NCBI RefSeq assembly: GCF_044324785.1
Contig: NZ_CP172127.1
Length of the DNA stretch: 64,000 bases
DNA from: Escherichia coli
GTDB lineage: Bacteria; Pseudomonadota; Gammaproteobacteria; Enterobacterales; Enterobacteriaceae
Reading direction: 5' to 3' (one strand)
Shown here: in pieces, positions 5,736 to 58,367 of the stretch
Numbering within the stretch: the first letter of the stretch is position 1
Layout: each line of letters begins with the position of its first letter
Made by a program: the position numbers and the translations under genes
The notes under the pieces: generated by a model
Seen by the model: only the letters and a program-made list of their open reading frames with translations
Databases searched by the model: none
Told to the model about the DNA's origin: nothing

Positions 5736-7124
5736 ATGTCTGAACGCTATATTCCACGCTCCGTTGATGCAGAGCAGGCCGTGCTGGGCGGCCTGATGCT
5801 CGATAATGAACGCTGGGATGAGGTGGTACTGATGCTCCGGGGGGAGGATTTTTCTCTGGCCGCACACCGGGTGATATTCCGCACCATGTCAGAGCTGGCA
5901 ACCAGCGGTCAGCCGTTCGACCTCATCACGCTGAGTGAGCATATTGAGAAAACAAACAATATTGAGGCACTGGGTGGTTTCGCTTATCTGGCTGAACTCA
6001 GCAAAAATACGCCTTCTGCAGCCAATATTATCGCTTATGCCCGTATTGTTGCTGAAAAGAGCATGCTGCGTCAGTTGCAGGAGACGGGGAATGCGCTGAT
6101 TACGGATGTGGCCGCACCGGATGCGACACCACGCACTGTTCTTGAATCCGCTGAACGTCGGCTCTTTTCACTTTCACAGACTGGCATGTTGCATGAGCGA
6201 TGTGAAGTCAGTCTCACCTCGGCTATGGAGCTGGCGCTGCGTCAACTGGAAGAGGGACTGAACGCCGGCGGGATGACGGGCACGCCCACGGGATTTGATG
6301 AACTGGATAAGATGACCTGTGGTCTGCAGCCCGGCGACCTCATTCTTCTGGCTGCACGCCCGTCTATGGGGAAAACAGCGCTGGGCCTTACCTTCTGTCT
6401 TAATGCCCTGTGTAACCGGACCGATGAAACGGTATTTCTTTTCAGTATCGAAATGTCCCGGGAGCAGCTGATTCTGCGTGTCCTGTCAATGCTCTCCAGG
6501 GTGGAGCTGACACGTCTTCGCAGCAGCATGATGAATGATGAAGAGTGGGCGAGAGTCACGGCAACCATGGGACGCTTCATGAATGAAGCGTCATTCATCG
6601 GAGATGGAAACCGCCTGATAATTGATGACACCTCCTTCCAGACGCCGTCATCGCTGCGTGCCAGCGCCCGTCGTTATGTCCGTCTGTATGGCAGACCTTC
6701 CCTGATAATGGTTGATTACCTCCAGCTGATTCGTTCTCCGGACCAGGAGAACCGAACGCAGGAAATTGCGGAAATATCCCGCGCCCTTAAGGCGTTAGGT
6801 AAAGAGCTGGGATGCCCGGTACTGGCACTGTCTCAGCTTAACCGTCAGGTGGAGCAGCGGGCGGATAAGCGCCCCAATAACGGTGACCTGCGTGATTCCG
6901 GGGCGCTGGAGCAGGATGCTGACCTCATTATGTTTATTTACCGTGATGAGGTTTATAACTCTGGCACGCTGGATAAGGGCGTTGCTGAAATCATTGTGAG
7001 CAAACAGCGGCAGGGGCCAACCGGAACGATACGGGTGAACTTCGACGGCCGCTACACCCTGTTTTCACCGTTTGAACGTGGATGGAATTTTGACCGTGCC
7101 GGAGGAAATGCGTATGTCAATTAA
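5736..7124 (+). CDS. DnaB-like replicative DNA helicase
   Basis: N-terminal DnaB domain (AEQAVLGGLMLDN), Walker A ARPSMGKTALGLTF, Walker B IMVDYLQL; SD GGGAGGTGG before ATG 5736. Confidence 0.9.
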   Translation: MSERYIPRSVDAEQAVLGGLMLDNERWDEVVLMLRGEDFSLAAHRVIFRTMSELATSGQPFDLITLSEHIEKTNNIEALGGFAYLAELSKNTPSAANIIAYARIVAEKSMLRQLQETGNALITDVAAPDATPRTVLESAERRLFSLSQTGMLHERCEVSLTSAMELALRQLEEGLNAGGMTGTPTGFDELDKMTCGLQPGDLILLAARPSMGKTALGLTFCLNALCNRTDETVFLFSIEMSREQLILRVLSMLSRVELTRLRSSMMNDEEWARVTATMGRFMNEASFIGDGNRLIIDDTSFQTPSSLRASARRYVRLYGRPSLIMVDYLQLIRSPDQENRTQEIAEISRALKALGKELGCPVLALSQLNRQVEQRADKRPNNGDLRDSGALEQDADLIMFIYRDEVYNSGTLDKGVAEIIVSKQRQGPTGTIRVNFDGRYTLFSPFERGWNFDRAGGNAYVN

Positions 7125-40617: not shown

Positions 40618-40977
40618 ATGGCGATGACTCAGGGGACAAAAGCGGGGCTGGTCCTGAAGGGCGTTAAGGTGGCCGGCATGTGGCTGTCGGGCCTTATTGC
40701 CATGATGATTCTGGCCCTCCTGGTGGCTGATACGGGCATGCGGCATACGCAGGAAGTGGAAGCATTACGGCTCTGGCTCCACGAGACACGTTTCGGATGG
40801 CTGGGGTGGCGGGTGTGCCTCTACGGTGCGCTGGCATGGGGATGCCGGAAAATCTGGCGTGCGCCGGGGTTCAGACCGGAATACCGCCGTCCCTTTGCGC
40901 GGATTTGTCTGGTCAGTGCTCTGTTTGCGTTACTTTGCGAGTACAGCATTTTTTTCGGACCGGGGGCTGAACTGTGA
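40618..40977 (+). CDS. Membrane protein
   Basis: SD GGGGAG before ATG 40618; TM helices. Confidence 0.55.
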   Translation: MAMTQGTKAGLVLKGVKVAGMWLSGLIAMMILALLVADTGMRHTQEVEALRLWLHETRFGWLGWRVCLYGALAWGCRKIWRAPGFRPEYRRPFARICLVSALFALLCEYSIFFGPGAEL

Positions 40978-42476
40978 CCACGAATAACTATCTGGAACAC
41001 TTTCTGACCCTGCTGGGCTGGCTGGTGAATAACGGCCTGTGGGATCTGCTGACGGGGACGGGGCTGTTTGCCCTGCCACTGGCCTTCAGGGTTATCGGGA
41101 TCTGGCTGAAAGTGCGGGAAGAGGGGGCGGATGAGGGAAATAAAGGGATGCTCTCACTGCCCCGCATTGAGCATGCCCTGTATGGTGCATTTTTTGTGAT
41201 GGTGGCCTGCTGTGTGCCGCTGGTACAGGTGACGCTGGACACGCTGAAATTTGATCGCAGCCGTGCCCAGACCTGCGGTGTGTGGACACCGAAAGCACCC
41301 GGTGATACCGGGTACAGCGGGGTGATCAGCAGCCTGGGTGACAGGACAGCGGCCGCCCCGGTGTGGTGGGTGGTGGTGCATAAACTCTCCAAAGGTGTGA
41401 CGCAGGCTGCTGTGGCGTCCATTCCCTGCCGGCCGGATATACGGCAACTGCGTTTTGAGGTGCAGCGGACATTCATTGCGAACCGGGCGCTGGCCGACGA
41501 GCTGCAGGACTTCACCAACGACTGTTACTCGCTGGCGCTGTATCAGTGGAAGCAGCGTGACCAGGGGATGACGAAGGACAGGAAGCTGCTTTCGGATATC
41601 AGCTGGATTGGCAGCAGTACGTTCATGCAGGGTGACTACGGGACACTGCAGTCGAAAATGCCACGTGCGGCATTCCCGTGGAATAGCGCCCGTGACAGCG
41701 GCCGTCCGGATACGGGACGGGGGGGTTATCCCACATGCCGTGAATGGTGGAGTGACAGTAGTGTCGGGCTGAAGAAGCGGGTGACAGAGGAAGTTGATGA
41801 AGGACTGTGGTTACGTATTTCGGCGGCAATGAAAATGCTGGGGAACGCGCAGGCGAACTACCAGGAGGAAATCATCAAACGTCTGGTGAGTCCGGCGAAC
41901 CTGACCCTGTCACAGGGGGGGGAGGTGTACCGTGGCTATGGCGGTAATGCAGATATGACGGCGGCGAATGCGGTCACGCGTGCAGCAGGCACGGCGGGTT
42001 CTGCCGTTGCTAGTCTGGCAGCGTTTCCGGCGTTTGATGCGATGCGGCAGGCGCTGCCGATGGTGCAGAGTATTCTGCTGATGGCGGTGTATATCATGCT
42101 CCCGTTGATTCTGGCGTTTGCGGCGTATGAATTCAGCACGCTGATCACACTGACGTTTGTGGTGTTTGCACTGAATTTCCTGACGTTCTGGTGGGAGCTG
42201 GCGCGGTGGCTTGACAGCTGGATGCTGACGGCCTTGTACAGTTCGGACACGCATTCCCGAGTGAACATGATGGGGCTGCAGAACACGTCGGATGATATCA
42301 TCATGAATTTTGTGATGGGCACGATGTTTCTCGTATTACCGGCGGTGTGGCTGGGAGCATTATCCTGGGCTGGAGTTAATATCGGACAGGCTATTTCTGA
42401 GGGATTCAATCGAGCAGGGCATGTTACACAACAAGCAGGCCAGCATGCTGGAAGTTTTGTTAAAAGAATAAAATAA
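40974..42476 (+). CDS. traG: TraG-like (N-terminal domain type) conjugal transfer membrane protein
   Basis: GTG start; multiple TM helices at both ends; last gene of T4SS block. Confidence 0.75.
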   Translation: MTTNNYLEHFLTLLGWLVNNGLWDLLTGTGLFALPLAFRVIGIWLKVREEGADEGNKGMLSLPRIEHALYGAFFVMVACCVPLVQVTLDTLKFDRSRAQTCGVWTPKAPGDTGYSGVISSLGDRTAAAPVWWVVVHKLSKGVTQAAVASIPCRPDIRQLRFEVQRTFIANRALADELQDFTNDCYSLALYQWKQRDQGMTKDRKLLSDISWIGSSTFMQGDYGTLQSKMPRAAFPWNSARDSGRPDTGRGGYPTCREWWSDSSVGLKKRVTEEVDEGLWLRISAAMKMLGNAQANYQEEIIKRLVSPANLTLSQGGEVYRGYGGNADMTAANAVTRAAGTAGSAVASLAAFPAFDAMRQALPMVQSILLMAVYIMLPLILAFAAYEFSTLITLTFVVFALNFLTFWWELARWLDSWMLTALYSSDTHSRVNMMGLQNTSDDIIMNFVMGTMFLVLPAVWLGALSWAGVNIGQAISEGFNRAGHVTQQAGQHAGSFVKRIK

Positions 42477-43118: not shown

Positions 43119-43691
43119 ATGAAAATATCAAAACTGGTTGTTGTGGCTACAGTATGTTCCACGCTTAGTGCATGTTCCGTGGAAGAGATGGCTGCTGTGA
43201 ACAAGAAAATCAGTGACGGTGCATTTGCTGTGACGAAAGCGCTCAATGGGGGAACGGGCTACGCGGATAATGGTATGCCGATCCTTAACAAGCAATTGCC
43301 GCCGGCGCAGGATAAACGCGAAAATGTTATTGATGTCCCTGTTGATGTGGATACCGCAGCAGGCCGACTGAAACGCTATTACAAGTTTTACTCGAATGAT
43401 GAGGTAAATGCGATCCGCAATAACGGCACAACTGACGGAAAATGGCAGGCAAGTGCGATTATTGACAATGGGCATATCTGGGATGCGATGCCGGGCAGTT
43501 ACTACAAAATGGGAGGAAACTGGCGTAAAGGCAGCTTTGATGATCACCTGACGATTGAGGTGGAAAAGAACGGTAAGGGAAGCCGGGTCTATATCACCTA
43601 TGCTTCAGCTTCTCAGGCGCATTTGCAGGCAAGTTCTCTTGAGCCTCTGTTTAAGCGAGTGAAGGATGTGGCTGAAGGAAAGGTTCGTTGA
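43119..43691 (+). CDS. Putative lipoprotein
   Basis: Signal peptide with lipobox LSAC; SD AGGAGAA. Confidence 0.6.
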   Translation: MKISKLVVVATVCSTLSACSVEEMAAVNKKISDGAFAVTKALNGGTGYADNGMPILNKQLPPAQDKRENVIDVPVDVDTAAGRLKRYYKFYSNDEVNAIRNNGTTDGKWQASAIIDNGHIWDAMPGSYYKMGGNWRKGSFDDHLTIEVEKNGKGSRVYITYASASQAHLQASSLEPLFKRVKDVAEGKVR

Positions 43692-44898: not shown

Positions 44899-44924
44899 GG
44901 CCAGCTATTATGCTGGCCTTTTTT
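44899..44924 (+). terminator. Hairpin plus T-run
   Basis: GGCCAGC-tattat-GCTGGCC followed by TTTTTT. Confidence 0.45.
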
Positions 44925-44929
44925 GTGGT

Positions 44930-45247
44930 TTATTGTTCGCAGTCCAGCATTGCAAATAATTTTCGTTTCTGTTCCTTCACATACTCAACATCAACAGTAC
45001 AATCCAGATAACTTAACTCATCTTCTGTCCAGGCATTGATGGATTCTTTTATTCGGTGTGTCACATCCGGTGTGAGTATGTCGCGCATTTTCTCAATGGT
45101 ATCCCGGCTTATTTCTCCTCGTGGAGATTCAAGCAGAGGAATTACTGCCTGATGTCCCGGAGGGAGTATAAGACGTAATTCATATTTAAGTGTTTCGTTG
45201 AGTAAACGACAGAAAGCACTGTATTTCTCTTTCCGGGTACTGTTCAT
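44930..45247 (-). CDS. Hypothetical protein (low GC)
   Basis: SD GAGAAGGAA before ATG 45247. Confidence 0.5.
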   Translation of the reverse strand: MNSTRKEKYSAFCRLLNETLKYELRLILPPGHQAVIPLLESPRGEISRDTIEKMRDILTPDVTHRIKESINAWTEDELSYLDCTVDVEYVKEQKRKLFAMLDCEQ

Positions 45248-45342
45248 CGTTTTATTCCTTCTCATTACTGTGCATGGTGTAAGATTAAAGCGTTTTGCAA
45301 AAGATGTACAAGTTGTTTTTATCCGGATTTAATATCATGGAC

Positions 45343-45996
45343 TCACTTTTCTTTTGTGTCAGTGGGTACTGCATTGTTTATTAGCCACGGCAATTGTTGA
45401 TTACCCTGTATTTTTCGGATGTAGTTATCAATAATATCTTTTGTTTCATCACTATTATTATAAAAAGATTCAAGTGTGCATATAAAATCATCATTTAATG
45501 CAGGTAGCAGGATTATGTTTTTTACTGTGAACCGGATATGACGATTACTCAGTGTTTTTAAATAAAGTTTCTTTCCAATAACAGGATTTACATTGAAAAT
45601 ATTGTAACAGATTTCCACTGTGTTTTCTGAAGGTGCGTATAATACGTATACCGGATATTTTTTATGAAGTTTTATCAGGCAATTTATAAAGTCTAAGGAA
45701 TTTGTTTGTTTTGCTTTTTCTCGCATCTTATTTACGTGTTGCGAAAAGAAATATGCTTTTGTAAATATAAAAAGAAAAATAAGCGCAGTGTTTAACAGAA
45801 ATGTGATGGCAATTGTTATAAATAACCATTTACCTGAACCTGTATTAAAGATATGGGATGAAAGATACCCACCTGTCAGCAACAAAAATATAAATAATAA
45901 TGACTGCATTTTTTCCTGGTTGTTTATTGATGATTTCAGACACAGAAATATAACAACACATGCAAAGCTCCAGAAAAATATAACAGCAAAATCCAT
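45343..45996 (-). CDS. Hypothetical membrane protein (3 N-terminal TM helices plus soluble C-domain; low GC)
   Basis: SD AAAGGTGA before ATG 45996; strongly AT-rich relative to ICE backbone. Confidence 0.55.
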   Translation of the reverse strand: MDFAVIFFWSFACVVIFLCLKSSINNQEKMQSLLFIFLLLTGGYLSSHIFNTGSGKWLFITIAITFLLNTALIFLFIFTKAYFFSQHVNKMREKAKQTNSLDFINCLIKLHKKYPVYVLYAPSENTVEICYNIFNVNPVIGKKLYLKTLSNRHIRFTVKNIILLPALNDDFICTLESFYNNSDETKDIIDNYIRKIQGNQQLPWLINNAVPTDTKEK

Positions 45997-46162
45997 ATTA
46001 TCACCTTTTGTCTGACAGTTCATTTGTTGATGCTATCACGATATTCGCGATGCGGTAAATATATCAATATGTTGGTTTATTTGTGTAATACATTATTTCC
46101 CATATGCCATAAATCAGTCTGTTGACGATAGCTTTTTTCTTTTGTTATTCTGTTCCCGCATT

Positions 46163-46478
46163 AACTGTCGCTTCGGCGACCACCAATGTTCCATGAGGCC
46201 TGTGAGGAACGCCTTCGGGTGGCCCATGTCGCTCCGGCGACCACCAATGTTCCATGTGGCCTGTGAGGAACGCCTTCGGGTGGCCCACGTCGCTCCGGCG
46301 ACCACCAATGCTCCATCTGACCAGTGAGGAGCGCCTTCGGGTGGTCAGTTTTACACCTCCGTAGCCTGAAAGGAGCTGTGCGTGCTGATGGGATATGTTT
46401 CCGGAAGTACGGGTAAATCTGCACACCTTTGCGAGCAGATGTCACCACGGTTTACGTGATGATGAAGGCATTCCGGAT
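46163..46478 (+). repeat. Structured ~320-bp element, copy 2 of 3
   Basis: Same three-unit plus hairpin-tail organisation as 17941-18270, with a few substitutions. Confidence 0.85.
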
Positions 46479-47175
46479 TTCGTCCGGTACTTTTACTTTT
46501 TCTCAGCAGACTTTCATAAAAAATGCTTTATGGATCTGCGTCTTAACATATTTTCTGACTTTCCGCATAAGCTTCTTATGACTGTGCGCACGGCATAAGG
46601 CCATTTGAAATTTGGCCGCTTGCGTGTGTACGTGGAGTTTGAAGCAGTGCATGCGTCACTTTTGTCGGCGTTCACGCTGACAAAGTGACGCATGAACGTC
46701 GACTCAACGAACCCGCATAAACAGGCTCTTCACGGGATGTTTTTTAACATTTGAAGAAGTGACCTGACGTGATCGTTTTTTTTCAACTTCATTCTGTTTC
46801 GTAGTGACGTCTCTCCGGTAAAACTTCCGGAAAAACGTCAGTCAACAGAATATCATTGTTTTTTAAGGAGTTTAATGTAGTGAGATGCCGAATCGGCGAT
46901 ATATCTGACAGGCAGATATGTCGGGGGCGACCTTCAGAGGTACAGTTAATTCTGCGGCCGGTTAAACTAACCGGCTTGACACCCCGCAAAACCTGAACAC
47001 TTTGCGTTACCCTGACGCACAGGCACTCACTCACCGAAGGAACGTAACGAAGAACCGTGTCGTCAGGTGAAATGCAGATGAATTCTTCTGTTGTGTTCAC
47101 GGCACAACAGAAGAATTCATCTGTGTTGTGTGCTGCTGTTTTGTTTAGGTCATAGGTCATAAGGAGAATGTACAG

Positions 47176-53412: not shown

Positions 53413-56328
53413 TTACTGAGTCAGTTTTTTTATCAGGTCGTGAATTTTATCACCTGAAAACTGGGTCATGAAAGTTATCTTTATGGATTTACTGATTTGT
53501 TCGAAGAGTTTCTGTGCATGTTTTATTTTATCGCGTTCTTCATGTCTGAGTTCACGTTTGCCATCAACATTTTTGGTTTCAATAATAAGGTTCAGATAAT
53601 CACCCTTTGACGTGTTTACAACATAAGCGAAGTCAGGGGAGTAAGTGTATCCTCCCGCTACAGGAATTTTTATTGAATTTTTGGGGATCTTTGTGAAGAC
53701 AATGACTGACCTGACCTCACCCTCTGTCATATTGAGTTTTTCAAGTTCTGAATCATAAAATACTTCTTCAAAAAGATAAGAGTCCAGTGGAGGGCTTGTA
53801 TTATCCTGTAAAACGCCAAGATCACTTGACAATACATCAGCAAGATAACCGCCGTCTGCATTGGTGAATTTCGTGGGATGGACAGTTCCTGATATTACAT
53901 TATACCCAAGGCTGAATTTACTGAACGAGTTATTAAGCAAATACTTGCTGAAACCAGATTTAATTTTTCTGATTGTCTGAATGTTAAGGTATTCAGTTAT
54001 ATTTATGATGTCTTTTATATCACAAAAAACCTTATGCATGGTGTCATGTTTGACAAAAATAGTCTGTGATAATTTATCAAGGAATTCACGATAGCTCATT
54101 GTGTTTATTTTGTGAAAATTATCCTCATCAACACTGAGAATGCTTTTCGACATTGCCGTATCATTATGGATATAAATTCTTTCAATACGAGTATGAGCAC
54201 CGGATTTGGTAAATCTGTCTGCTTCTTCCAGCATAAACGCTCTGAAAAGGGATAAAAACTCACGTTCACTTTTTATTTTATACTCAATCACGACCTTTTG
54301 ATTGATCAAGTCCCATAGTTCTTTCAGCTCACTGAACTTACCAACACGCATTTTAGTGCGTCTTTTTCCATCAGAGGCTTTTTTTATTTTGCCTGGTTTC
54401 ACTCCTGCAGGAAATGCTGCCGGATATCTGGCTTTTAAGCGGCTATAGGCATCTGAATCTTTGAAGTTATCATTATCATCAATGATCTCATCACCAAAAA
54501 TTTCATTCAAGAGTGTTCTGGAGGAAAGCTCCGGATATTGAGACAGGATTTTATCCTTAAGCTCCTGAGTAAACTTACCTGGAACAGTCTCTTTGAAAGA
54601 ACTATCGTTGATCTCTTTGACAAGAGAATCGACAAAATCTTTTTCTGTAAAATCAACATAATAGTTGAGGGTAAAATTGCGGTCTTTCACACGACACATG
54701 TATTCATTCACCGGAAGACGTAAACCACGCCCTACTTCCTGAAGTTTAGATGTGGTGCTACCGCTCGAACGGAGCTTACAAATCTGAAAGACATTTGGGT
54801 TATCCCATCCCTCACGCAACGTCCATTTAGAGAAAATGAAACGGCGAGGATTTTCTAAAGACAATAGAAGCTCTTTATCATGAAGGATTTCGTTGATTTC
54901 CTGCTCAATTTTATCATCTTTATCACTATTATCTTTTGAAAAATAACCACCATGAACAGAAGATATATCCTTAACAGTTTTTTCAAGGTAGTTTCTGTAA
55001 AACTCATCTTTTTCTGTTTTTAACAGTTCATTTGCTTCTGCCAAAACGTATTCTTCGAACTTAGTTTTCAGGCTTCCTGCAATATCATTACCATCACGAT
55101 AGCCTTCAATGTCATCAATGAAGAAAAGAGTAAGAGGTTTTATGCGTGGCCTTTGTGTCAGATACTCTTTTTCTAACTTAAAGTGTTCTTTGACAGCTTT
55201 ACGTATCATGTTATCAGCAAGTGTCTGATCGTAAGAATAGGGGTTTATCGAACTACCAATTTTTAGCTCAATACCATTACTCAACACTGCTGTATTCTTA
55301 TTTAAAGCATCAAGAGTTAAATCATGGATCGCACTATGCGTCTTAGATAGTGATTCACCTTTGGCTAACTTAAAAATTTTTTTATTATTATTTTCGTTCA
55401 GTTCAAATGTAGCTTCTTTTCCGTCAGATTTGACCAACTTGAGGTTGGCATTACCATCACCAACTATATCCTCAATGTATGCATCAATACCTTTAACAAG
55501 ATCTTCATTGAAGGCATCTACGGCTGTAAGACGATAAACTAAGTTCTTATAGCCTTCACTAAAGGTTGCACCATAGCGGATGATATATTGGGCATTAAAT
55601 TTTTGAATATGTTCCCATGTCTTTTTACCAGTAGGAAATTTATGAGGCTCATCAATGATAATGAATGGTTTTATCGCACTAAGTGCAGAAAATGGGGTAT
55701 CAAACTGATTATTAAGCAAGCCAACATCATAAGTGTCAGTTAAAGACTTAGAGTTAATCATCCCTGAATTGATCACAAGAATGTGTATATATTTCTTATT
55801 GAAATTACTTGCTTCAACAAAATCATGGATAGCTTGAGGTATATACGATTTTGTATTTTTACCCGAACGTTTCTGACTTTCAACAACGTAAGTCTTTAGT
55901 TCACGCTCGTAATCATCTCGAAAGTGTTCTTTTATAGCATCGCTTTTTAAAAAGTTAACGGTTCCGGCTTTGATCGATAGGGTAGGAACAATGATGATAA
56001 ACTTGTTAATACCAAATGATTTGTTCAGGTCAAAAATTGTTTTGGTGTAAGTATAAGTTTTACCTGTACCTGTCTCCATAGAAACATCAATTACGTTGCT
56101 TTTAGCATCGTAATTATCTTTTGAGTGCTCAATACCATTGAACTCCTGAACATTTTTTATGTTGTTGTAGTATTGTTGTTCAGATAGATTCAGTTCTGGA
56201 TTAGCTAACAGGCGAATTGCAACATGATCCGTCTGATGAGGTATGGCGGATACAAAGACATTCATTACCGAATCAACGCCAGCCTTTTGATGAGGTAAAT
56301 TTTTTTCGAATGTGAACCCTTTAGACAT
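53413..56328 (-). CDS. res: Type III restriction enzyme Res subunit
   Basis: 971 aa; helicase Walker A METGTGKTYT, DEAH-like IIIDEPH, motif VI QEVGRGLRL, C-terminal PD-(D/E)xK; low GC; immediately downstream of mod. Confidence 0.85.
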   Translation of the reverse strand: MSKGFTFEKNLPHQKAGVDSVMNVFVSAIPHQTDHVAIRLLANPELNLSEQQYYNNIKNVQEFNGIEHSKDNYDAKSNVIDVSMETGTGKTYTYTKTIFDLNKSFGINKFIIIVPTLSIKAGTVNFLKSDAIKEHFRDDYERELKTYVVESQKRSGKNTKSYIPQAIHDFVEASNFNKKYIHILVINSGMINSKSLTDTYDVGLLNNQFDTPFSALSAIKPFIIIDEPHKFPTGKKTWEHIQKFNAQYIIRYGATFSEGYKNLVYRLTAVDAFNEDLVKGIDAYIEDIVGDGNANLKLVKSDGKEATFELNENNNKKIFKLAKGESLSKTHSAIHDLTLDALNKNTAVLSNGIELKIGSSINPYSYDQTLADNMIRKAVKEHFKLEKEYLTQRPRIKPLTLFFIDDIEGYRDGNDIAGSLKTKFEEYVLAEANELLKTEKDEFYRNYLEKTVKDISSVHGGYFSKDNSDKDDKIEQEINEILHDKELLLSLENPRRFIFSKWTLREGWDNPNVFQICKLRSSGSTTSKLQEVGRGLRLPVNEYMCRVKDRNFTLNYYVDFTEKDFVDSLVKEINDSSFKETVPGKFTQELKDKILSQYPELSSRTLLNEIFGDEIIDDNDNFKDSDAYSRLKARYPAAFPAGVKPGKIKKASDGKRRTKMRVGKFSELKELWDLINQKVVIEYKIKSEREFLSLFRAFMLEEADRFTKSGAHTRIERIYIHNDTAMSKSILSVDEDNFHKINTMSYREFLDKLSQTIFVKHDTMHKVFCDIKDIINITEYLNIQTIRKIKSGFSKYLLNNSFSKFSLGYNVISGTVHPTKFTNADGGYLADVLSSDLGVLQDNTSPPLDSYLFEEVFYDSELEKLNMTEGEVRSVIVFTKIPKNSIKIPVAGGYTYSPDFAYVVNTSKGDYLNLIIETKNVDGKRELRHEERDKIKHAQKLFEQISKSIKITFMTQFSGDKIHDLIKKLTQ

Positions 56329-56330
56329 GA

Positions 56331-58367
56331 TTAGTTCCTTACCACCAAATCTAAATCAATAGATTTTTTATTAGCATAACTTTTTAGTGCTTCATTGAGT
56401 TCCATCTGTTTCGCACTTTCGAAGTTGCTGCCATAAAATACAACTTTGTTAGGGGCAAAGTCTTTGTCTGCATCCAGCTTTTGAAGTAAAGCTTTCAAAG
56501 CCTCACTTGTGAAATTAGGCGCAATTAGATATAGCCGACCATCGCACAAGTGTGCTTTGTAGCCATTAAGGTCAATATCTTCAATTGGTGTTGTTAGCAA
56601 GCTGCCATCATACACGCACCATGTCGTCAATAGAGTGTCATACTGCTCTGGTGTCAATACAGCATCGTCAAAGAAACTAAGATTAGAAAGCGTAAGTTCA
56701 GACTCATCTTTCACTCGAAAATCATGAACTGTTTCAAATATTTTAAATCCCAAATCTCCATTATAATTAGGATTATCTTTTTTCAGCTTTTTTCCTGCCT
56801 TAATAATTCTGTCTTTTGTTATATTGAAGATGGATTTATACCCTTCTTTATAGGCTTGTTTCTTTTTATCTGTTTCTTCATCTAATTGAACACAGATGAA
56901 GTTTCTTTTCCTGCCGTCTTCAATATTTAACTCCAGAATACCATGAGCTGTAGTTCCAGAGCCAGCAAAAAAGTCAAGATAAATGTCTTTATCTTCGGTT
57001 TTTACTGAACCAAATAGTGTTTTTATTAAACTTGTTGGCTTCGGGTAGGAGAAATATCCTTTCCCACCAAAAAGATTTTCAACCTCAACACCACCATCAC
57101 TTTTAGTTGAAATAATTGATCTTAGTAAAAACTCTTCAACTTCATCTAAAAATTTAACCGAACTGGGTTGGGTGTTTTCTGTACTGGCAAACCAAATTCC
57201 ACCACAAATAACGCTACCATCATGTAGTTTTTTGATATCTGCATACTTTCCATCTATTCTTTTTGCAATATGATTAAAAGTGCCTTCTTTCCAACGCCAG
57301 CCTCTGTCTGGGATTTTGACAGGGTTATTAGTCAAAGGGTGCAATACTTCATACGTGGGTCCAAATGAATCTGCATTAGGCCAGCTCATATTAATTTTAC
57401 CCCATGGCCTATAATCTTCGTTCAAACAGTTGTAAAGAGTAATTCCACGATCATATCCGTTGGAGCTGTAGAATTTTTTGAGTTGCTGCTCTGCTTTATC
57501 TAATGGCACCTTCTCCTTTTTTAACTTTTCAATAAACTGATATACATCATCAATACCATCTTTCCGCATTAAAAATTCTTTACTTATTTCGTTATTCTTC
57601 GCATAAGCAAGGATGTACTCATGGATATTACCAATACCCTTATCATTTTTAGGGATACGTTTATTCCATACAATATTTTCTATGAAATTTGCTTCGCCAA
57701 AAATTTCATCACAAATAGTTTTAAGTTGATTTAATTCATTTTCGTCAATCGAAATAAATATCACACCATCTTCACGTAGAAGCTCACGAGCAATATATAA
57801 ACGAGGATAAATGAACGTTAACCATGCGCTATGGCTGCTTGAACCATTCGTGGTAAATTCAAGTATACGTTTAGCCTCATCAAGATCGATACCTGCCAGA
57901 TCAGAAAGCTGTTCAGGTGTAAACTTGCGATCATCGTTATAGGCGAATCCATCCTTACCTGTATTGTATGGTGGATCAATGTAAATCATCTTCACCTTTT
58001 CAGAGTAAGCATTAACCATATGCTTCAATACTTCGAGGTTATCCCCTTTGATTAACAGATTCTGACTGTTTTTGTTCTCTTCACGTTGGTTATGGTCTTT
58101 ATCTTCGGAGAGTAATGTCTTCGGCGGCAAGTTAGCTAACAGACGGGCATAGGATTTACCAAGCCAGTTCAGGCTGTATGATTCTTTGGAGAGTTCAACA
58201 TCCGATGATTTGACGATTTCAAGCAATTTTTCCTGAATGAACGCTCCATTTTTATCAAAACACTGTGGAAAGTTAGCCTTTAAAATCGCAAGCTGTTTAC
58301 TGTTTGTGGTTTCAGTTTCAGAGAAAAGAGTTTCTTTTTTCAGTTGAAATTGGGGTTGTGTATTCAT
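56331..58367 (-). CDS. mod: Type III N6-adenine DNA methyltransferase Mod subunit
   Basis: Motif IV DPPY (MIYIDPPYNTG) preceding motif I FFAGSGTT (beta-class order); SD GGAGGTG 5 nt before ATG 58367; mod-res order. Confidence 0.85.
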   Translation of the reverse strand: MNTQPQFQLKKETLFSETETTNSKQLAILKANFPQCFDKNGAFIQEKLLEIVKSSDVELSKESYSLNWLGKSYARLLANLPPKTLLSEDKDHNQREENKNSQNLLIKGDNLEVLKHMVNAYSEKVKMIYIDPPYNTGKDGFAYNDDRKFTPEQLSDLAGIDLDEAKRILEFTTNGSSSHSAWLTFIYPRLYIARELLREDGVIFISIDENELNQLKTICDEIFGEANFIENIVWNKRIPKNDKGIGNIHEYILAYAKNNEISKEFLMRKDGIDDVYQFIEKLKKEKVPLDKAEQQLKKFYSSNGYDRGITLYNCLNEDYRPWGKINMSWPNADSFGPTYEVLHPLTNNPVKIPDRGWRWKEGTFNHIAKRIDGKYADIKKLHDGSVICGGIWFASTENTQPSSVKFLDEVEEFLLRSIISTKSDGGVEVENLFGGKGYFSYPKPTSLIKTLFGSVKTEDKDIYLDFFAGSGTTAHGILELNIEDGRKRNFICVQLDEETDKKKQAYKEGYKSIFNITKDRIIKAGKKLKKDNPNYNGDLGFKIFETVHDFRVKDESELTLSNLSFFDDAVLTPEQYDTLLTTWCVYDGSLLTTPIEDIDLNGYKAHLCDGRLYLIAPNFTSEALKALLQKLDADKDFAPNKVVFYGSNFESAKQMELNEALKSYANKKSIDLDLVVRN

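Follow-up and report, generated by a model that had tools for sequence, protein, structure and literature searches.

Two adjacent AT-rich cargo genes of an ICEEc2-like element in Escherichia coli belong to two uncharacterised protein families with separate distributions

The window analysed here is a stretch of 64,000 nucleotides from Escherichia coli (contig NZ_CP172127.1 of RefSeq assembly GCF_044324785.1), in which two adjacent minus-strand genes occupy a block of low GC content in the cargo region of an ICE. Gene 1 (45343–45996, minus strand) encodes a 217-residue inner-membrane protein, delineated from its open reading frame, its translation and a family alignment. Gene 2 (44930–45247, minus strand) encodes a 105-residue, acidic, all-helical soluble protein that is a member of phrog_1853. 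The two are separated by a 95-bp spacer (45248–45342, minus strand), in which no minus-strand terminator was predicted, and a weak promoter-like site (45362–45334, minus strand) overlaps the end of gene 1. Genes 1 and 2 are compositionally foreign cargo of the ICE. They had been described as AT-rich compared with the surrounding ICE, and this is borne out by GC fractions of 0.303 for gene 1 and 0.412 for gene 2, against 0.593 for the ICE core (21–42 kb) and 0.515 for the whole window; the GC profile reaches its minimum, 0.285, at 45400–45799.

The left edge of the low-GC block is marked by a GC-rich hairpin (44899–44918, assigned to neither strand) with a 7-bp stem that includes 6 GC pairs, located 11 nt past the gene 2 stop codon. 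The T-run is on the plus strand, so that the hairpin has no U-tract when read on the gene 2 strand. The right edge is formed by two STAXI motifs (Rfam), a 61-bp tandem repeat that starts at 46166 on the plus strand. The STAXI repeats are mis-annotated as proteins. They also constitute the far boundary of the gene 1 upstream region (45997–46165, minus strand; GC 0.33), which contains a Shine–Dalgarno sequence and sigma-70-like hexamers. The latter make up two promoter-like sites (46087–46058 and 46067–46038, minus strand), defined by consensus matches only.

When read from the first ATG, the longest open reading frames extend over 45343–46023 (226 residues) and 44930–45265 (111 residues), both on the minus strand. 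Alignments of homologues place the starts at 45996 for gene 1, because its relatives begin with a conserved MD(R)SLLFFY, and at 45247 for gene 2, because its relatives begin at the equivalent methionine. Ribosome-binding sites are present upstream of both ATG codons: AAGGTGA at a distance of 5 nt from 45996 and GAAGGA at a distance of 8 nt from 45247. Two minus-strand genes with strong Shine–Dalgarno sequences, the second encoding 105 residues, were part of the original prediction and agree with these assignments. In RefSeq, gene 1 starts at window position 45909, which yields a protein of 188 residues from which the first membrane helix has been lost; judging by the alignment, this start is probably too far downstream, and the annotation is corrected here. 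Both reading frames are taken to be genuine genes rather than chance ORFs, since gene 1 has 24 relatives and gene 2 matches phrog_1853 and has a family of 26 clusters.

The structure of the gene 1 protein was predicted with AlphaFold2 at a pLDDT of 87 and a pTM of 0.76. The model consists of three helices (residues 3–22, 27–49 and 55–97) followed by an alpha/beta domain at residues ≈100–200. Residues 1–97 (nt 45706–45996, minus strand) comprise the three predicted membrane helices, the third of which runs on as a juxtamembrane helix, and residues 98–217 (nt 45346–45705, minus strand) comprise the conserved alpha/beta domain, which is predicted to be cytoplasmic. The elements of this ≈120-residue soluble domain follow in the order alpha, five strands, alpha, alpha. 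The arrangement of three N-terminal membrane helices and a soluble domain is thus the one that had been read from the DNA sequence originally. Lysine and arginine residues are concentrated at positions 80–96, where there are five, compared with two such residues in loop 1 and a single one in loop 2. According to the positive-inside rule, this distribution predicts a topology in which the N-terminus is outside and the C-terminal domain is cytoplasmic.

Relatives of gene 1 were sought by an exhaustive HMMER search over 1.84 billion representative proteins, which yielded 24 representatives at 50% clustering, with E-values down to 5e-38. All of the named members are from Enterobacterales (E. coli, Salmonella, Intestinirhabdus, Pseudocitrobacter, Entomohabitans and Serratia), and every member is annotated as hypothetical. 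The relatives, which are 25–49% identical and come from six genera, are well conserved in the C-terminal domain and poorly so in the membrane helices. The C-terminal domain includes nearly invariant residues, and the conserved segments are WYVLY.PS.N..EIG.N, PVIGKKFY.KTL.GR, IC.L..FY, TK..V.NYI..IK and PW.I. The low GC content is also a property of the family: the genes of the relatives have GC fractions of 0.27–0.35, compared to ≈0.5 in their flanks, with a single exception at 0.44.

Neither protein has a match in Pfam, NCBIfam or PADLOC, in line with the earlier statement that no motif could be recognised, and the Pfam search was empty for every other family member as well. PHROGs, searched with both proteins, returned only phrog_1853, for gene 2. 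In PADLOC-DB 2.0 (5027 models), no family matched either protein at E ≤ 1. When the gene 1 model was searched against AFDB50 with Foldseek, 12 family members were found and nothing else below E ≈ 0.9. Several weaker candidates were considered and rejected. Matches of gene 1 to Bax1-I, Acyl_transf_3 and ATP synthase b all fell in the membrane helices and were compositional. Foldseek matches to PilZ, Tudor and YolD-like folds, obtained with the full model and with the fusion model described below, had E ≈ 1. For PilZ in gene 1, the E-values were 0.5–1.2 and the probabilities 0.2–0.3, no family member had a Pfam PilZ match, and the c-di-GMP-binding motifs of PilZ were not found in the alignment, in which RxxxR is not conserved and the expected (D/N)xSxxG is reduced to a partial NxxxxG.

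A profile search against the PDB returned ubiquitin for gene 1, with E = 3e-4 on polyubiquitin chains and 0.09–0.9 on shorter chains. No individual stretch passed the threshold, and the match came down to a 26-residue hairpin motif at profile positions 141–166, in which KKFYIKTLTGR..F.PE of gene 1 is aligned with QIFVKTLTGKTITLEVEPS. Homology to ubiquitin was therefore rejected. A beta-grasp fold was rejected as well: the order of elements in the model differs from beta-beta-alpha-beta-beta-beta, and Foldseek gave no ubiquitin-like match.

Gene 2 matches phrog_1853 with E = 7.3e-18, its residues 5–102 aligning with positions 60–156 of the 159-position profile. This family has no assigned function. 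It includes orf6 of the Stx2-converting phage 86, to which gene 2 is 38% identical over 91–93% of the length, and the motif ELSYLDC is common to gene 2 and its prophage relatives. By profile search, the gene 2 family comprises 26 clusters, for which the source, where named, is always E. coli; Foldseek added members from Salmonella and Shigella, none of known function. By sequence, the protein is acidic and has neither a signal peptide nor a membrane segment. In the AlphaFold2 prediction, made as part of the fusion model, it forms five helices with a pLDDT of ≈75–86.

The relatives of gene 2 were examined in five lambdoid or Stx prophages. In all five, the relative lay in the interval between holin and endolysin as a lone gene on the strand opposite to the late genes, usually convergent with the gene for a DUF1327 protein, with no relative of gene 1 in the vicinity. 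The fixed antisense position in the lysis cassettes suggests that the prophage gene is expressed in the lysogen. Remote homology searches and structure prediction, proposed originally as a way to follow up the locus, placed gene 2 in phrog_1853 and gave models of both proteins; beyond the two families themselves, no fold relative of either model was found in the PDB or AFDB50. Both gene products are folded proteins under family-level constraint, given the conserved C-terminal domain and pLDDT of 87 for gene 1 and a pLDDT of ≈80 for gene 2. Each of the two families delimited in this way is uncharacterised, and its model is reasonably confident and has no outside fold relatives in the libraries searched.

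Of 5426 complete E. coli genomes, 35 contained an identical 1.2-kb stretch, and most of these were from avian or extraintestinal isolates. Its location was chromosomal every time, and it was absent from all of 72,556 plasmid records. In E. coli AR_0089, the identical region is annotated in RefSeq as part of the cargo region of an ICE that has the TIGR037xx set of transfer genes, TraG_N, TraD, a type IV pilus/shufflon cluster, iha and ArdA. As judged from this gene set, the carrier falls into the PAPI/pKLC102/PFGI-1 type of ICE. ICEEc2 of the avian E. coli strain BEN374 belongs to the same type (PMC6761156), and the carrier ICE is ICEEc2-like, the likeness being at the family level. The local order is TraG_N, a 190-residue putative lipoprotein, a type-B L31 paralogue, gene 2, gene 1, the STAXI and EFASI repeats, an integrase-domain gene, and ArdA with further cargo. 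Gene 1 sits 2.9 kb downstream of the TraG_N gene. The same cargo region also contains a Type III restriction–modification system (53413–58367), 7.4 kb away from genes 1 and 2.

The relatives of gene 1 occupy a variety of chromosomal sites. In Salmonella enterica subsp. salamae and in an Enterobacteriaceae MAG, the relative adjoins phoH; in Entomohabitans, it lies between proP and lplA; in Intestinirhabdus, it follows tRNA-Ser and adjoins type I-F cas genes, the only context in which a known defence locus stands beside a gene 1 relative; in another Salmonella context, it adjoins a DUF1440 gene; and in E. coli, one relative directly follows a P4-type integrase in an island at secG. Homologues in non-mobile housekeeping contexts had been named in the original prediction as evidence that would speak against a defence role. 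Gene 1 relatives are in part found in such places, between housekeeping genes such as phoH, proP and lplA, but they are AT-rich islets at these sites, not core genes. The family had no match in 50,697 phage records and was found on only three plasmid records, all non-mobilisable and 0.2–1.4 Mb in size, which look like chromosome fragments.

Closer to the present locus, a sister ICE has a gene 1 homologue of 42% identity in the equivalent slot, with STAXI alongside, and the tellurite/urease island of O157:H7 contains a block made up of the L31 paralogue, hok, a gene 1 homologue and STAXI/EFASI. Among 5426 complete E. coli genomes, 589 carry this O157-type allele (RefSeq WP_000397129) as an intact open reading frame, and the gene 1 family is present in roughly a tenth of the genomes. 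Sampled strains with this allele include O157:H7, O145 and O111, in which it is inside an ICE-derived block. A related ICE has no member of the gene 1 family in the equivalent slot. A literature search for the O157 homologue, by RefSeq accession, and for DUF1327 found nothing.

Whether a neighbourhood is conserved among homologues tells real systems from chance neighbours, and this comparison does not support the proposal that genes 1 and 2 form a two-gene module. By tblastn, no gene 2 relative was found at the loci of gene 1 relatives outside this ICE lineage (≈10 independent contexts), and the five prophage contexts of gene 2 had no gene 1. The pair was confined to this ICE lineage (35 of the 5426 complete E. 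coli genomes), apart from which the distributions of the two families are disjoint. The GC fractions of 0.30 and 0.41 suggest separate origins for the two genes. It is thus likely that the genes are not an obligate pair, and we favour, with somewhat less confidence, the view that they are two independent orphan cargo genes that have come to be adjacent in one ICE lineage, rather than a co-evolving two-component system.

Variation within the ICE lineage was examined as well. Two ICE alleles differ at 11% of the gene 1 residues, while gene 2 is identical. The differences all lie 5' of a sharp break at ≈45616, the 3' half of gene 1 being identical, and dN/dS in the divergent part is ≈0.7. Since the divergence of gene 1 is confined to one side of the break and gene 2 is identical, the pattern is that of a recombination mosaic, not of co-evolution, and the pair must have travelled together through at least one recombination event. 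Positive selection on gene 1 was considered and set aside, as a dN/dS of ≈0.7 together with a sharp recombination break provides no evidence for it. A third ICE sub-lineage has a frameshift in gene 1 and a deletion of six residues from the best-conserved motif of gene 2, indicating that both genes are dispensable there.

Co-transcription of genes 1 and 2 is possible, as they are co-directional, 95 bp apart and have no predicted terminator between them, and the two could have become functionally linked in this ICE. A fusion model, consisting of gene 2, a linker and the C-terminal domain of gene 1, was predicted from an alignment in which the rows of homologues were padded with the query's other half. 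Its pTM of 0.42, obtained with no PAE and no paired alignment, is silent on binding between the two proteins, because the padded rows carry no inter-domain covariation.

A genuine two-gene anti-phage defence or abortive-infection system, in which gene 1 would be a membrane effector and gene 2 a cytosolic sensor or regulator, would be consistent with two co-directional, closely spaced genes that have no terminator predicted between them. It would also fit their setting in the AT-rich cargo of an ICE that has antirestriction genes in addition to the nearby Type III restriction–modification system, and the gene 1 relative that adjoins type I-F cas genes. However, the pairing was conserved in none of the ≈10 gene 1 contexts and none of the five gene 2 contexts, there was no PADLOC match, both genes are decaying in one sub-lineage, and the difference in GC content suggests separate origins. 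Low GC content, adjacency and a membrane anchor are insufficient to call a defence system, and we consider this one unlikely. A toxin–antitoxin or addiction module that would stabilise the ICE, with gene 1 as membrane toxin and gene 2 as antitoxin, was also considered. The architecture, in which the gene for a membrane protein precedes that for a small, acidic, soluble one, has the appearance of such a module; sister elements have a hok/gef toxin gene where gene 2 is located here, at a distance of ≈0.9 kb from the homologue of gene 1; and the degraded gene 2 in the sub-lineage with a broken gene 1 is compatible with loss of a toxin followed by loss of its antitoxin. Yet hundreds of genomes, O157:H7 among them, have an intact gene 1 relative and no gene 2, and a toxin that needs this antitoxin would not tolerate its absence in these 589 E. 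coli genomes. Prophage gene 2 relatives likewise occur without gene 1, and searches of Pfam, NCBIfam and PADLOC matched neither protein to a family of toxins or antitoxins. We consider an addiction module the least probable of the explanations.

Two further explanations were considered. The genes might be silenced, effectively functionless xenogeneic DNA, hitch-hiking as H-NS-repressed remnants, as would be consistent with the very low GC content, the patchy distribution, the frameshift and motif deletion in one sub-lineage, and the gene 1 dN/dS of ≈0.7 between the two ICE alleles. This is difficult to reconcile with a gene 1 C-terminal domain that is conserved among relatives of 25–49% identity in six genera, with reasonably confident AlphaFold2 models of both proteins (pLDDT 87 and ≈80), with an O157-type open reading frame that is intact in 589 genomes, and with good ribosome-binding sites; we consider it quite unlikely. 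Alternatively, gene 1 might be an entry-exclusion factor of the ICE, similar to TraS of F or Eex of SXT. In exclusion of this type, an inner-membrane protein of the recipient blocks transfer from a donor that has the same element; F and SXT have divergent traS and eex genes, and Eex has its exclusion determinants in the cytoplasm. Gene 1 is modelled as a small polytopic inner-membrane protein with a cytoplasmic domain, the TraG_N gene is 2.9 kb upstream, and the TraG_N proteins of the sister ICEs are 89% identical, yet the gene 1 alleles in the same slot are only 42% identical. The location near TraG_N is seen in this ICE and the sister ICE, with other cargo genes intervening, but the related ICE has no family member in the slot, and members at phoH, proP and tRNA-Ser/cas have no conjugation genes around them. 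Furthermore, the C-terminal 50 residues of TraG_N vary among ICEs with 100% identical gene 1, so that there is no co-variation, and gene 1 is frameshifted in an ICE sub-lineage in which the transfer genes remain called open reading frames. The entry-exclusion version of the gene 1 role is thereby weakened, and we regard it as unlikely.

We classify genes 1 and 2 as ordinary uncharacterised cargo from two families with no known relative. As two independent orphan genes, each would act alone as accessory cargo. A defence or exclusion role is possible for gene 1 alone: it may serve as a membrane-anchored protective function for its carrier, either excluding incoming DNA or mounting a response of the abortive-infection type. 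In such a role, the conserved cytoplasmic domain would recognise a partner, and the poorly conserved membrane helices would merely provide an anchor. This guess, the most likely one for the function of gene 1 but still a tentative one, is drawn from the architecture and the residence in mobile elements and from nothing else. A more specific version is rather doubtful: that gene 1 represents a new family of stand-alone proteins from enterobacterial mobile elements, with a membrane anchor and a cytoplasmic fold that has no known relatives, acting by itself in exclusion or abortive infection, with gene 2 perhaps recruited in this ICE as a prophage-derived modulator.

Several characterised systems invite comparison with gene 1. 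F TraS and SXT/R391 Eex resemble it, by analogy, in being small, polytopic inner-membrane proteins with a cytoplasmic portion, encoded on a conjugative element at no great distance from a TraG-family gene. They are further alike in being AT-rich and in having strongly diverged alleles in a conserved slot. In contrast, gene 1 showed no relationship to a characterised protein in either sequence or fold, and its family also occurs away from conjugation genes, is missing from a related ICE and shows no co-variation with the TraG_N C-terminus. P22 SieA, T4 Imm and the lactococcal Abi proteins are likewise products of single, AT-rich accessory genes with an N-terminal membrane anchor and a small cytoplasmic domain. 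This is a resemblance of kind only, as gene 1 has no match in the 5027 PADLOC models and no relative in the 50,697 phage records. The hok/gef gene is related to the locus by position: in the sister ICE and the O157:H7 island, it is flanked by the L31 paralogue and the homologue of gene 1, in the position taken by gene 2 here. It has no homology to either gene and no NCBIfam match connects them; Hok has ≈50 residues and one membrane helix, in contrast to the 217 residues, three helices and additional domain of gene 1.

For gene 2, the counterpart is phrog_1853 itself, as represented by orf6 of Stx2 phage 86. Gene 2 is a homologue of equal length that shares the ELSYLDC motif, and the predicted all-helical folds are alike (TM-score ≈0.86, normalised to the targets). 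Their surroundings differ, however: gene 2 resides in an ICE and is co-directional with the gene for an unrelated membrane protein, whereas the prophage genes are usually convergent with the gene for the DUF1327 protein.

The variable cargo region of the ICE begins within the 3' end of the TraG_N gene (40974–42476). In comparison with three other copies of the ICE, the first ≈450 residues of the TraG_N protein are 100% identical, whereas identity falls to only ≈50% over the last ≈50 residues (≈42330–42476); the boundary of the variable region therefore lies inside the gene itself. Downstream of TraG_N is a plus-strand ORF of 190 aa (43119–43691) with a lipoprotein-type signal containing an LSAC lipobox. 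This predicted lipoprotein had no NCBIfam match, and a related ICE has a 191-aa ORF in the matching position (L023, 4482–5057).

Immediately upstream of gene 1, the 61-bp tandem repeat corresponds to two adjacent STAXI RNA motifs (RF01728, gathering score 40.5), one scoring 68.6 bits and the other 61.9. The STAXI pair is followed by an EFASI-like match of 46.3 bits, below its own gathering score of 51.2. The Rfam matches (46166–46461 and 46878–47031) are on the plus strand, which they share with the integrase-domain and ArdA genes, and the motifs may form single-strand structures in the early-entering region of the ICE.

The cargo also includes a plus-strand gene for a type-B, ykgM-like paralogue of ribosomal protein L31 (43916–44179), for which L022 and L024 were the loci compared. 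The tellurite/urease island of O157:H7 retains a block consisting of the L31 paralogue, hok/gef, the gene 1 homologue and STAXI/EFASI. Because this block is preserved there, the comparison suggests that the island was derived in part from an ICE of the type found in the window. Downstream of the gene 1 homologue in O157:H7, and on the same strand (plus), is an unannotated, very hydrophobic ORF of 113 aa (L024, 9718–10059), which is not related to gene 2.

Some of the ORFs called near gene 1 and its homologues are translations of repeat DNA. The 88-aa hypothetical protein annotated by RefSeq at 6414–6680 in L022, one of the compared loci, is just a translation of STAXI repeats, and equivalent minus-strand ORFs of 93–95 aa run across the STAXI repeats of the window (46145–46448). 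In Intestinirhabdus alba, a tandem DNA repeat of ≈180 bp that directly follows tRNA-Ser (GGA) has been called as a 213-aa gene (L020, 5138–5779); it lies at the margin of the island with the gene 1 homologue and the type I-F cas genes.

The gene 2 homologues of three lambdoid/Stx prophages each converge on a gene for an uncharacterised late-strand protein, belonging to phrog_1085 in two of them (L002, 5313–6119; L003, 5321–5962) and to Pfam DUF1327 in the third (L025, 5327–6106). In the L002 and L003 proteins the C-terminal half is conserved, whereas the N-terminal half varies.

PADLOC identified a Type III restriction-modification system on the minus strand at 53413–58367, made up of ORFs of 971 and 678 aa with a GC content of 0.35 (REase_III, 1597 bits; MTase_III, 771 bits). 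The corresponding slot in the ICE of E. coli AR_0089 is occupied by other genes.
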